Below, piece by piece: positions 52,319 through 57,788 of a stretch of 64,000 nt of DNA. Location of the stretch: contig CM030334.1 of the NCBI GenBank assembly GCA_017654855.1, positions 372,001 to 436,000 of the forward strand. The letters run 5' to 3'. This DNA is from Podospora anserina. Taxonomy: Eukaryota. The translations under genes and the position numbers were made by a program. Numbering within the stretch: the stretch's first letter is position 1; the number at the start of each line of letters is the position of its first letter. Under the pieces are notes generated by a model. That model had not been told where the DNA came from. It was given only the letters and a program-made list of their open reading frames with translations, and searched no databases.

Positions 52319-52507
52319 CCGGTAGAAAACAAAGCACTGCTCCTACACTGCTCTTGTTGAGGAGCGGTCAGCTCCACTGTAGACAGAGCTGCTTGAGCCC
52401 ACAGCCGTCAAACAGACGGCCAATGGGAATATATCTGGGTATTTTAACAAGGAAATCTGGACTCTCATCATGTCGATAATCCAGATTCTTGGTCAGGTCT
52501 CAAGGAG

Positions 52508-53676
52508 ATGGCTCACCTCATCCTGTTGGTGCTGCTTGTCAGCACCTACGCCTACGCTGCCCCCCAGCCGGCGGCTACAGATACTGGGTCAACGAAACCC
52601 TACCTCCAGCGTGACCCAAACTTTCATGGCCTACCCGCGCGAGGTCCTCTACCAAGCCCGCAGCGCCGCCGCTCGCCTCAACGATCAGCTCGACTTCGAC
52701 TTCCACAACGTCTTCCACGCCATCTTCAAGGCCAGCGTCTGCACCCAAAACACCTACCGCTACTCCCCCGAGTACGACCACGCCTGGGGTCCCACCGCAG
52801 GCGTCCCTTGGCAAATAGTATCAGACACCATGTTCGGCCTGGGCAACAACTGGCGCTCCACAGACAACCGCATCGACGCCCACCTCCGCATCTACTGCGA
52901 CGACGGCGCCAGATACGAACACTCGGCCAACGGCCAGCTCTGGGACACCGTCGAGCACTTCTACCGCCCCGCCGGCGACGGCGGAGTCCACGCCTGCCAG
53001 GAGCAAACCTTCCACCGTTGCTACGTGACCCACCTTCATCAACTGGGTGATACCGGAGGGCGAGTCCGACGTGCCATTCTACTCCGTCATGGACATCCGT
53101 CAAAACCTGCGGAACGTCCTCGGCCAGCTGGACCGGTCCCAACTCCGAGGACTATCGATCGGGCTCAGATGGCGTATGGGGGGGAAAGAGAGAGAGAGAG
53201 AGAGAGGGAGAGGGAGAGGGAGAAAAATGACATGCACAACCTGCCGGTTTTCTCCCTCGGGCTGGAGCAGATGCCCGTCCAGACGCTGTTCCACGAGTGG
53301 ATGCACGCCATGCCGTTTCTCGGGCAGGATTATCCAGACGCCCGAGGTATGAGCGGGAGTTGGGACCATGTGATCACTCTGTTCACAGAGCAAGCGTTGC
53401 ATGCTCCAGAGGCCTACAGTGAGTTCTTTTACCCTTCCTACACAAGGCTGTTTTTGATGGCAGCGCTAACAAAAGAAAGCATACCTCGGCCTCTGGGCTG
53501 CCCTTGCTGACCTGAGCCCAAGCGGTTACCTGGACGCCAATGGCAGAGGAGGTGGATACACAATCGACCGCTTCTGGGGCATACGGCCTGAGGAAACCAA
53601 ATGGGACCAGAATTTCCTTGAGGACAACACGGGTGAAACCGACAATCCGGCTTTTGGAGGCTGGATTACGGCGTAA
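52508..53676 (+). pseudogene. Secreted zincin metallopeptidase (HEXXH, M35-like) remnant with several frameshifts
   Basis: Signal peptide at 52508; IYCDD; TLFHEWMH; HAPEAY|TYLGL across intron 53419-53479. Frames change near 52580, 53045 and at the GA repeat. Confidence 0.65.
53187..53223. repeat. (GA)n / purine microsatellite inside the metallopeptidase remnant
   Basis: agagagagagagagagagagggagagggagagggaga. Confidence 0.85.
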
Positions 53677-54093
53677 AGAGACTTGACAGAGCAATAGAAA
53701 TACTAGATGATAACCGGAGGGGGGAAATAAAAAGACACAGCTCACAGCAATTGTATTATAGACGATTTGATCTGACCCGGTGAGTGAGTAGGGCTACCTC
53801 ATGAGGTGCATTCCAAATACTCAAACAAATTCCATGTATCGCCGAAAAGAAATGTCCGCCCTCCTAACCTTGAGTTCCCTTTTTTATGCCGCCTCCCCCG
53901 TGTTAAGCATATTTCCAAACGCCCCCTCTGTTCACCGCTCTGCACCCAGGAAGGAAAAAAACCAAGGTCTCAACAACCCAATCCCGTAAGTCGTAACACA
54001 AAGGCGGTGGTGGCAAGTACAGTGTGTTGCAAAAGAAAATGAAGGGCCCCCAACCATTCATGGAGCCTTACTCCATGGTTACGACCAATGAAG

Positions 54094-54654
54094 CTACTGC
54101 ATCAGCCCCGGATCAAACAACGCCACCTCTTGGTGAGGAAAGACGGGTTGAAATGGATTTGGCGGGCCGTTATCCATGTGATGGTGATGATGCAAGGCAT
54201 GCTGTAGCTGGATGGGAAGCACATGATTGGGAGGCAAAACTGCCGCCTCGTGTGCAGGCAGCAGCTGAGGATAATAAACTGGTTGGTTAATAGGCGGCCA
54301 GATGAGGGCCGGTGGAGGCGCATGGCATGCACTCCCAGCAGGACGGTTCCTCAACTTCCTCGGGGTCGGTGATTGCCTCGCCAGCGCCGTGGTAACGTCC
54401 ATTGACTTTCTTGTCCGGATTCTCTTGGACCTCCGCCGGCCGGGGGTAACATCGGACTGGACAAGGTTGATCTCGCTCGGCTCGGTATCAGAAGCATGGG
54501 CGGCATCGACGAACGGGGTTAAGGACGACGATGGGCCCTGTTCAGCACCAGCATGATTAGGAACACGCAAGCCCGGCTGCTCATCATGGGCCCGGCCAGT
54601 GCCTCCACCGTTGTATCCAAAAGTTTTTCTCTGTCTGGTGGTTCTTTTGCTCAT
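54094..54654 (-). CDS. 186-codon ORF in frame with, and 9 nt after, the SFH1 stop (candidate C-terminal extension or separate gene)
   Basis: ...CTC TAG GTA AGT GGC ATG AGC AAA...; basic RRRSKRIRTRK and a Pro/His-rich tail. Confidence 0.5.
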   Translation of the reverse strand: MSKRTTRQRKTFGYNGGGTGRAHDEQPGLRVPNHAGAEQGPSSSLTPFVDAAHASDTEPSEINLVQSDVTPGRRRSKRIRTRKSMDVTTALARQSPTPRKLRNRPAGSACHAPPPALIWPPINQPVYYPQLLPAHEAAVLPPNHVLPIQLQHALHHHHHMDNGPPNPFQPVFPHQEVALFDPGLMQ

Positions 54655-54663
54655 GCCACTTAC

Positions 54664-56567
54664 CTAGAGTGGCTTGGCATCACCAAGATGTAGATTCAGT
54701 GTAAAACGAGGCAGCTTGCGATCGCGCTCAAACATGAACCCGCAATTGTTGCAAAGAGACTGCGCCATCAGAGTGTCAGCATCAAAGCATCCAAAAACAT
54801 GAAAGACGAGACAGGGTGTGAAAGACATACCCTTGGCCCATAAGGACCATCCCGGACAGCCCAAACACTTGTCCCCCAAACCTTGCAGTGGGAGCACCGC
54901 CAAGTGTTCCTCTCATGCTCAGCAAGTGTTCCGCCACCCCCGTAACCTCCAGCACCGCTCGTGGCATCTGGAGTACCCCTATATCCACCGGGAGTGCCCG
55001 CTCGGCCGACCGGCGACAGACTCCTGAAGCGCTTCTTCTTTTTGCTCCTTTCACCTCTCCCCATCCTCTCCTCCGCATCTTGCTCAATAAGTCCGGTGAA
55101 GCCGAAGCCAACGGGCACGCCACCGGCGCCCAGCCCAGTATTACTGCTGAAGCGCGCGGTCTCTCTCCTCAGCCGACGAATCTGGCGCTCCCGGTCACCT
55201 TCCCGTTTCTCAATCTCCTCCTTGCTGAGATACTCCAAACGAGGGCCCCAGGATTCGGCAAGACCGTCAGGATCATAGCGCCAGCCAGCACCTGCGCCGC
55301 TGGGGTTGACAGCGTCATTCGGGAACTCAATCACTCCTCCTGGAGGCAGGACACCACCGCTGGCAGTGAGAGCAGACGAGGCGCCAACCCAGCCAGCAAC
55401 CAAACCACCCGACTCGCAAGCTTCCTTCTTGAGACGTAGGACAGCTTCATAGATGGCATGCGTCATGGCCGGCACCCATTCGCCAGACAAACCCAAGTCA
55501 CTACAGGTCTGCTTGGCGAAGAGCTCGGCCGTTCCCGGCGGGTGCAGCAGCGACCACTCAAACTTGTCCGTGTACACCTGTGACGACAAGTTGATGTTAA
55601 GGCTGACGATGCATCTATAGGTATCGTCGGGGCTCTCGTAGTTATCAGCTGACGTTTCAAGCGGGGTAGCGCTGGCGGTCACGCCTTCTCTTTCAGATAT
55701 CGCGCCCGGCGTCGCTGGGGCATTCCCCAACTTGGACGGTGTCGCGGGAACGTGGGGGGTATCGGATCGGCTGAGGGAAGAGGTTGCAAGGTTTTGAGGG
55801 GCCGGAGTGGCCGACTCGACACGGATCGAAGCTTTTGGGGGCTCGGCGGCGTTGGGTCGTGAACTGTGCGAGTGGAAAAGAGGATGAAGCGCAACACCGG
55901 CATACTCTTCAAGCTGTGTCCGAATCTGCTTGCTGATTTCTGAAATGGTCTGGGCACGGTTGGGAAGATCGAGGTCCTGAACCAAGGTGGTGGCAAACTG
56001 GTCGGTTGTGATGACTGTCTCGTGCAGATTCCACATGAAGGTGTCGCGTAGACGGTAAGGCACTGTTGGTTCTTGGGGTTTGAAGAAGGGGTGATTTGGG
56101 TCGGCATGGCCACCGACGGGCAGGGCAGGCGGGGGTGTATAGCTTGGAATGTCGAGATCGATGCGAATCGGGATCAGCGTCAGCGGGAGACAAGCCTGGG
56201 CATAGTTTTGGGCATCTGCCCGGCGAGTCCTGTTCATCCAGTCGCGCCAGATGCCCTGCATCTCAACTGGGGCGACAGCTTCCTTGCCGACCTTTTCGCT
56301 GGGGTCTACTTTGGAGGCGCTGTCGTCGCGACGGAGGCTGCGCAAACCGGTAGGTCGGCGACGGTTGTCGTCGTCATCATCGTCGTAATCATCGTACCCA
56401 TCCTCGGCATAGTTGATTATAGTCGTTCCTCGCTTGGTGGTTCGCGACAGAGGGTTCGCCGGCACGGCGCTGGGAATCACAGGCTGGATCAGAGCATTCT
56501 GGTAGGTGCGCAAGCGAGGGGCCAAAGACGAGAGTATCGCCTGTTGCGACTCGGACCGCAAAGCCAT
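54664..56567 (-). CDS. SFH1: RSC chromatin-remodelling subunit Sfh1 (SNF5 family) with C-terminal GATA-like zinc finger
   Basis: SRTTKRGTTIINYAEDG; LIPIRIDLD, LRDTFMWNL, YTDKFEWSL (SNF5 repeats); ERQIRRLRRE. Intron 54830-54760 completes CSHC-x18-CNNC. Confidence 0.93.
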
Positions 56568-57788
56568 TGTGATGGTGAGAGGGCGAGATTGATTGTGCTC
56601 TTGTGATTGGCTCTATCTCATGGCAATGAAAAAACAAACACGCAGAGTGTCGTGTCGAGTCGAGTCGAGGCGAGGCTGCCCGTTGGGGGGAGGGGAGAAG
56701 TCGGTCGACTCAAGATGGCCGGAATTCAAGGGCACAAAAGATGGGAAAGACGGACGCAATGCTCAGTGCAATCAATCAACTGGCGGCTGTTGACTGGCCG
56801 TGCATGTGTGTATCAGAGAGACAATAGAAATCTCTCTGGAGCAAACGGCAACAATGGCTCCCAACGAGCGAGGGTTGTCGTTGAATGGTGGAGGGTTGTT
56901 GTTGAGAGCTTGCTCTTGCTTTGGTGTGTGCCTTGCTCTGAGCGCCCGTCAAAAACGCGACGTTGATTTGCGTGCATCGCGCTTCTGCAAAAGCTTAGCT
57001 GGTGGCCTGTGCACTCAAGAAGATTAGATAATCAACACATTGGTAGGTGAGTGGGTGGGTCCAGGCCTCAAAACACCAAGCAAATCACGTGCCTCACATC
57101 AAACATCATCACGATATCCTTCACCACCAAGGGTAACCTTAACTTCACCACCAGCCCAAAGCCATCTAAACGACACTTTTATATAACCAACCTTGTTTTT
57201 CATCAACCCCTCCACGGTCCCAAAGCCTGGGAAATAGGGCTAGCTTAACCTTTGTCGTGGTGAAATCTCTAATTCGTGCCTGCCATCCATGGGCTTCCTT
57301 CCCAGCCACACGCTCCTTGGGCTTCACGTGGTAGTTGCTCTCTGTCAAGTAAGCTAAGGATAAAAATTAGAGGCAGGGATTTCTCTCCCTTTGTTCTCGT
57401 TGCTCCGATATTTTGATTGTAATGATTAGCCTCAAGTTTGAAGACTGATAGCCCCAATCACATGATACCTACTATCAAGTTCACTTTTATCTTCTCACCA
57501 GTGAATTTAAACAAATTTCTCTCCAAATCTCCCAACCTTCTTCTTTTCCCTCCAAAGCAGGTCCTCCTCTCGTCGGAACACCATAGTTCTTCCACAAACA
57601 TCTATCACCTGCTCCTGTGGCTACACTCTAAGCTCCTACGAGTTCCCCTTCTCCACTTTTCTTGGGCCCCCCCGTTGGTCAAACCACGATAGCAGCAAGC
57701 CACATCCAGTTTTCACCTCAGCTCACTTATACTTGCTCCTGACCGTCGTCGCTGTGGGCCCCGTGCTCGCCCCTTGCCCACCTCCAGG

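Follow-up and report, generated by a model that had tools for sequence, protein, structure and literature searches.

A candidate site of sexual-stage stop-loss editing at the SFH1 stop codon of Podospora anserina

The window analysed here is a stretch of 64,000 nt of Podospora anserina DNA (assembly GCA_017654855.1, contig CM030334.1, positions 372,001 to 436,000), within which all coordinates are counted from the first nucleotide. On its minus strand the gene SFH1 terminates in a TAG codon at 54664-54666, beyond which the same frame continues through 189 sense codons (54097-54663) to a second in-frame TAG at 54094-54096. The question raised by this locus is whether the first TAG is a stop codon that is edited in the messenger RNA (mRNA), lengthening the SFH1 protein in sexual tissue, or whether the open frame arose by chance in a long 3' untranslated region (UTR). 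From the sequence comparisons reported below, the SFH1 UAG is most likely, with somewhat better than even confidence, a substrate of the sexual-stage adenosine-to-inosine (A-to-I) mRNA editing of Sordariomycetes. That it is edited in P. anserina itself we infer from the position of this species in the Sordariales and from its induced ADAT-like genes: passages of PMC11156358 and PMC5381528 document such editing in the Sordariales members Neurospora and Sordaria, and ADAT-like genes are reported, in the text consulted of bioRxiv 10.1101/2024.12.09.627484, to rise during perithecium development in P. anserina.

Since the spliced product of 610 residues has 0 differences from PODANS_3_1180 of P. 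anserina S mat+ (100% identity), the minus-strand gene is, at the level of sequence, the annotated homologue of SFH1, an RSC/SNF5-type subunit, Pa_3_1180. Four residues differ from the P. comata protein, and the next-best clusters listed are only ~75% identical. Across the seven species of the P. anserina complex, and in Cercophora samala, Triangularia spp. and Apiosordaria backusii, the identity of SFH1 is 90% or higher. Exon 1 (54831-56567; ATG at 56567, 579 codons) encodes the SNF5 domain, matched in Pfam by PF04855 with an E-value of 1.2e-86, and the first half of a GATA-type zinc finger, of which the second half is supplied by the 31 codons of exon 2 (54667-54759), on the far side of a 71 nt GT..AG intron (54760-54830). 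The finger (PF00320) is precomputed on the 610-residue representative of the SFH1 cluster, a C-terminal finger of the GATA type being the arrangement found in filamentous ascomycete orthologues, and exon 2 ends in ...GDAKPL (CCA CTC), the C-terminus of the annotated orthologues. The layout on which the original prediction of an edited, extended isoform was built is confirmed by reading the minus strand: CCA CTC is followed by TAG and then by 189 sense codons beginning GTA AGT GGC ATG, the sequence GTAAGT directly abuts the stop, the next ATG (54654-54652) lies 9 nt past it, and the translated frame includes a basic cluster (RRRSKRIRTRK) and an end rich in Pro, Gln and His. The stop of the open frame is itself followed by an in-frame TAA four codons further on.

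The stop codon and its predicted hairpin, compared across relatives

The candidate edited adenosine, at 54665, is predicted to lie in the 7 nt loop of a hairpin (54655-54673; GCCACU / CUAGGUA / AGUGGC) closed by six Watson-Crick pairs, with the U and A of the stop codon second and third in the loop, as U33 and A34 are in the anticodon loop of a transfer RNA (tRNA). Editing favours stable hairpin loops, which passages of PMC9600606 and PMC4817773 liken to the anticodon loop. The adenosine remains in a loop whether 31, 51, 61 or 81 nt are folded, and the minimum free energy of the hairpin is low relative both to shuffles of the 3' flank (z = -2.84, p = 0.013) and to dinucleotide shuffles (z = -2.0 to -2.35). 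Among the 944 TAG triplets on the two strands of the window, the SFH1 stop is the only one able to form at least five Watson-Crick pairs in this register. The bases flanking it are C at -2, U at -1, G at +1, G at +2, U at +3 and A at +4; five of these six are the preferred ones around editing sites of Fusarium graminearum, as given in section 6 of PMC9600606, the exception being the U at +3, which is depleted there.

Relatives of SFH1 were found at 80 metagenome loci, in 77 of which exon 2 is present (it is absent from L029, L053 and L056). With each identical context counted once, the near-duplicates L003 and L030 left out and the window included, the comparison set comprised 62 rows. The stop codon is TAG in all 15 loci of Sordariomycete type (L069 being placed in this group by best match and type of C-terminus only) versus five of the 47 others (Fisher p = 1.7e-10), and a hairpin loop is predicted to hold the stop-codon A in 14 of the 15 versus 16 of the 47 (p = 5.8e-5). 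As the rows are related, these Fisher values overstate their independence, and counts made on a tree are fairer. In the tree, the window, all 24 named Sordariomycetes and the 15 loci form a single clade with a support of 100, the loci adjoining named Sordariales, Coniochaetales, Diaporthales, Xylariales, Hypocreales and others, and the SFH1 TAG is kept across at least seven order-level lineages. No change of stop codon is counted among the 17 Sordariomycete rows, versus at least ten among the 44 others. Shuffling of the 3' flanks would by itself place the A in a loop in 7.8 of the 15 loci, from a high baseline of 0.52, the probability of 14 or more being 5e-4; in the other group there is no such excess (16 of 47 observed, 0.34 expected). 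The geometry of the hairpin varies among the orthologues. L009, the protein of which is 99.6% identical to that of Thermochaetoides thermophila, has the same 7 nt loop in the same register with a different 3' arm, and the other orthologues place the A differently, in loops of 3 to 16 nt.

Annotated Sordariomycete orthologues terminate at the same residue, in ...D-x-R/K-P-F/L, none of them being extended, and SFH1 orthologues, whether Sordariomycete or not, have their C-termini no more than three residues from this place. On the sequences compared, the base of the Sordariomycetes marks a joint change of C-terminus and stop codon.

Two other configurations were observed among these loci. SFH1 of Leotiomycete type (L013-L028, L040, L070, L074 and the Botrytis protein P0118) ends three residues later, in ...DYR or ...AYR, and uses TGA, TAA and TAG in turn as its stop. 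A Diaporthales-like locus (L008:2095-2100) carries two stops in tandem, TAG TAG, reminiscent of the PUK1 case with its double editing, and 30 open codons follow the second.

The SFH1 transcript and the proposed course of editing

Whether the open frame is transcribed was judged from assembled sequencing runs. The word content of the stretch stood at 0.90 in 16 runs of the same organism and at 1.00 in six DNA-sized runs, and contigs were aligned from three of the former (X1, X5 and X13, from three studies) and from one DNA run (X17). Contigs of the first three skip exactly 54760-54830, the SFH1 intron, which is retained in X17, and are for this reason taken to be spliced RNA. In all three the spliced contig continues without a break from SFH1 coding sequence across 54666-54094, so the open frame is part of the SFH1 mRNA as assembled, such contigs being unable to separate overlapping transcripts or to show transcript ends or minority edited reads. 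The original prediction had supposed a transcript that is neither ended nor spliced ahead of the open frame, and these contigs bear it out. They end at 53728 (X13), 53736 (X5) and 53763 (X1), giving SFH1 a 3' UTR of ~900-935 nt, or roughly 4x the 212-239 nt that Table 2 of PMC9801653 lists as the species median. The part behind the second TAG (53730-54093) measures ~330-365 nt, a normal length for a UTR.

Elsewhere in these contigs, a minus-strand A located 6 nt before the SFH1 ATG, at 56573, is replaced by G in X1 (depth 4.8) and X13 (depth 40.4); the window and X17 have A, and on the plus strand the change reads T>C. At this position a difference between strains is a likelier cause than editing, because the preceding base, C, is not the one preferred by editing and because the change is complete in the contigs. 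The RNA contigs give no cover at 53000-53700. A convergent neighbour on the plus strand (52383-53510), open over 375 codons and encoding an HEWMH motif, is likewise uncovered in all three RNA runs, and a GA-rich simple repeat inside it (53174-53232) is a breakpoint of aligned contigs.

If the SFH1 UAG is edited, the deaminase would be the tRNA deaminase Tad2/Tad3, acting with a stage-specific cofactor. Conversion of UAG to UIG, read as UGG, would insert tryptophan and allow translation of a further 189 residues, such that the same mRNA would yield a protein of 800 residues instead of 610. On this account the site, a TAG held in a loop, is apparently old and kept across the class, and the tail is young, unconserved and disordered. 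Such a tail, if active, would more probably act in a generic manner than as a domain, for instance by destabilising the protein: section 15 of PMC13123824 reports this effect for the edited tail of FgDbf2, along with six other F. graminearum tails that cut GFP 5- to 38-fold. By analogy, the likeliest effect of editing SFH1 would be a change of dosage and not a new domain. A more far-reaching version can be put forward only tentatively, and we consider it doubtful. This would make the site an old, selected, class-wide switch that alters the essential RSC remodeller during meiosis and ascospore formation, producing in P. anserina an 800-residue isoform with a newly born 189-residue tail and turning a 3' UTR of ~0.9 kb, long enough that nonsense-mediated decay would be expected, into coding sequence plus a UTR of normal length, so that the protein would be changed and so would the stability of its mRNA.

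A chance frame and other readings of the tail

The alternative that survives best, although rather unlikely in our judgement, is that the frame opened by chance and drifts neutrally in an unusually long 3' UTR, that the stop is never or negligibly edited, and that TAG and its loop have been kept for some other reason, such as the context of termination or a contact between RNA and protein. A number of observations weigh against editing, and this alternative would accommodate most of them. The first concern the frame itself. Calculated analytically with a first-order Markov model, the probability of a frame staying open for at least 189 codons past the stop is 0.0006-0.004, according to the local composition used, and ~10-40 frames of this length would be expected to be open by chance in a genome of ~10,000 genes; the other two frames past the SFH1 stop remain open for 0 and 25 codons. 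Trained on 16 long open reading frames (ORFs) of the window, a codon-usage score gives 0.057 for the tail, 0.145 +/- 0.082 for true coding chunks and -0.042 +/- 0.122 for wrong-frame ORFs, and because the tail falls between the latter two values, codon usage leaves its coding status undecided.

A second group concerns the absence of relatives. Among 1.84 billion representative proteins the tail has two matches only, one of them a copy from the same lineage (P0001) and the other an artefact (P0002); searches of 90% clusters with the tail yielded no further relatives, whether near the length of the query or longer. P0001 is a 186-residue ORF call beginning at the ATG, 98% identical to the tail (4 of 186 residues differ) and present in machine-assembled sources only. 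Its contig matches in length that of P0135, an SFH1 copy that carries the four substitutions of P. comata type, and in that copy the tail has changed ~3x faster than SFH1 (4 of 186 residues versus 4 of 610), which is compatible with neutrality and little or no constraint. No fused form was found among proteins of 332-2000 residues when the tail was the query, nor near 800 residues in the search for SFH1 homologues; of the 74 SFH1 homologues retrieved that show the exon-2 motif, none extends past the usual end. The tail gave neither a tblastn nor a blastn match in the 80 metagenome loci, and the 3' region and downstream neighbour showed no similarity to these either. The in-frame tails of the relatives, 0-73 codons long, are unlike that of P. 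anserina in sequence. Their median length is 40 codons in loci of Sordariomycete type versus 22 in the others (p = 0.029), at a G+C of 0.54 versus 0.47; since frame 0 of the relatives is no longer than frames 1 and 2 (medians of 46, 40 and 17; Wilcoxon p = 0.25), these longer tails follow from G+C. Conservation of the extension, one of the checks named with the original prediction, is therefore not supported, its sole relative being a 98% identical copy and the in-frame stretch in relatives being no longer than the other frames.

Further points concern the site and its editing. Besides the high baseline for loop position already given, the hairpins of the relatives are no more stable than shuffles (median z = -0.18), p falling below 0.05 in one of 15, namely this window. 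At 54665 the contigs of the three RNA runs all have A, as does the DNA run, contigs being assemblies that drop minority variants and the developmental stages of the runs being unstated, so that this A speaks neither for nor against editing. According to the reports consulted, 323-403 of the 4,292 TAG-ending genes of F. graminearum, roughly a tenth, are edited, and in the literature searched no catalogue of editing sites in P. anserina was found. The main texts of the editing literature searched do not mention SFH1/SNF5 as an edited gene, supplementary site tables being a place where SFH1 may be listed; the terms 'sfh1', 'snf5' and 'chromatin' are absent from the main texts of PMC13123824 and PMC5381528.

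Pfam recognises no family on the tail, nor on two neighbouring ORFs, including the convergent frame at 52383-53510. AlphaFold (AF2, run without an alignment) models it entirely as coil, with a mean predicted local distance difference test (pLDDT) of 52.9 and a predicted template modelling score (pTM) of 0.11, and its composition is 14% Pro, with 23% hydrophobic residues. Its protein-atlas recognition score is 1066, with no usable match, versus a score of 2300 reached by 91 of 100 proteins of known families. In terms of nucleotide sequence, the tail region has no repeat copy within the window; Rfam gave a single chance match, below threshold. The tail thus appears to be young and lineage-specific; it looks disordered in the model, and it bears no sign of a selected protein sequence.

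A chance frame accordingly fits the tail, with its lack of conservation and of an edited contig or fused protein, but leaves three features of the locus unexplained. These are the TAG present in 15 of 15 loci, with no change in the class that edits versus at least ten elsewhere; the excess of the loop position over shuffles; and a coding-like G+C of 0.57-0.60 that spans the open frame and is confined to it, the 3' UTR behind having a value of 0.475. The part of the original prediction that invoked stop-loss editing retains its support in the UAG, five of six flanking bases, the stable hairpin loop and the keeping of TAG and loop in orthologues; conservation of the extension and control by a splice donor are not supported.

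Two kinds of database entry resemble evidence on the tail and were rejected. P0002, an apparent relative of 58% identity, equals the translation of the window after every C has been changed to T (120 of 120 residues). Its 120 residues are exon 2, the stop and the tail as they translate when fully converted from C to T, the TAG being read as Gln; when converted reads are assembled, spurious 'distant homologues' of this sort enter the protein collection. Unnamed SFH1 'proteins' of 640-707 residues (for example P0039, P0049, P0079 and P0097) are ORF calls on genomic sequence that run through the conserved intron and enter exon 2 in the wrong frame; they are not extended forms, and the added length has no biological meaning.

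It is improbable that the ATG at 54654 and the codons after it, 186 in all, constitute a young orphan gene, or a downstream ORF translated either from its own transcript starting inside SFH1 or by re-initiation. The proximity of that ATG to the stop and the coding-like G+C would suit this explanation, as would the listing of a 186-residue protein by generic ORF callers in two assemblies (P0001 and P0003), and overlapping transcripts are inseparable in contigs. These sources are machine-assembled only and no named annotation includes the ORF, whereas the SFH1 cluster contains annotated entries for P. anserina and P. comata as well as for five sister species. The homologues, family and fold by which an independent protein-coding gene is recognised are lacking, as is any look-alike; outside the SFH1 coding region there is no room for a promoter, and no contig breaks near 54654. 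Re-initiation after a frame of 610 codons is inefficient in eukaryotes.

Programmed readthrough of the UAG by ribosomes, without editing and with the aid of local structure, is very improbable. It would make use of the 189 open codons and of the structure at the stop, but that structure holds the stop inside its loop instead of lying 3' of it, and UAG-GUA is not known as a readthrough context. Readthrough would not demand TAG in the editing class only, and here too the tail is unconserved.

Least credible is that GTAAGT serves as a genuine splice donor, the isoform being controlled through an alternative last exon or an intron in the 3' UTR. Control at this donor had been raised as a possibility in the original prediction, AG|GTAAGT fits the donor consensus, and the portion of PMC9801653 consulted counts 344 P. 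anserina genes with 3' UTR introns. Against it, the known 71 nt intron is the only junction in the contigs of the three RNA runs, all of which cross 54663 unspliced, the TAG lies upstream of GTAAGT and so could not be removed by splicing there, and bases of GTAAGT enter both the loop of the hairpin and its 3' arm.

Comparison with known stop-loss and deaminase systems

The mechanism of A-to-I stop-loss editing is known, and SFH1 is probably a further case of it, with a lineage-specific tail, and a second candidate for a conserved stop-loss site. The first is DBF2, for which section 13 of PMC13123824 (Du et al. 2026) argues conserved stop-loss editing from a TAG bias, a hairpin loop and a tail that is disordered and unconserved. 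As far as these sections of PMC13123824 go, the likeness extends to the figures. TAG is used in 94% of Sordariomycetes for DBF2 versus <37% elsewhere, and at the SFH1 stop in every Sordariomycete-type locus versus about one in nine others; a hairpin loop holds the A in 82% versus <34% for DBF2, and in all but one versus about a third for SFH1. In both, a conserved C-terminus precedes the stop and a disordered, little-conserved tail follows it. The differences are that editing of DBF2 has been shown in eight species and tested genetically, whereas SFH1 is a candidate from sequence; that the DBF2 tail is short, whereas that of SFH1 has 189 residues and sits on a 3' UTR of ~4x the median; and that the relatives of SFH1 give no sign of selection on the length of the tail.

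Within the portions of the literature consulted, DBF2 is the only stop-loss editing event to have been tested functionally, and the adaptive value of stop-loss editing is in dispute (PMC13123824 versus PMC13684035). A second stop that keeps both TAG and loop across a class, in a subunit of an essential chromatin remodeller, would be a natural next test case. P. anserina is a harmless and tractable genetic model, in which alleles that cannot be edited (TAA) or are always extended (TGG) can readily be constructed, and its very long, unconserved tail could show whether the content of a tail matters or only the loss of the stop. Were editing absent, the class-wide TAG would need another explanation.

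Similarly, the SFH1 site can be set beside the stop-loss editing described across fungal genomes, with which it shares the UAG-to-UGG change proposed for sexual tissue, the U at -1 and the preference for hairpin loops. Hundreds of genes make up the edited set, transcription regulators included. Sites are rarely shared between species, with 9 of 240 common to F. graminearum and Sordaria macrospora, whereas the SFH1 TAG spans at least seven order-level lineages of the tree. In the restorative editing of PUK1-type 'functional pseudogenes', UAG likewise becomes UGG and translation continues; the part of PUK1 downstream of the stop is the conserved remainder of the protein, whereas SFH1 is complete at its stop and the downstream frame lacks relatives.

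Finally, the anticodon stem-loop of tRNA, the native substrate of Tad2/Tad3 with A34 as its target, resembles the SFH1 hairpin in its 7 nt loop, in the shortness of its stem and in the U-A that comes second and third in the loop. The SFH1 hairpin differs in being located in an mRNA, and the likeness of register is our own reading, the papers describing a 'hairpin loop, similar to the anticodon loop'.

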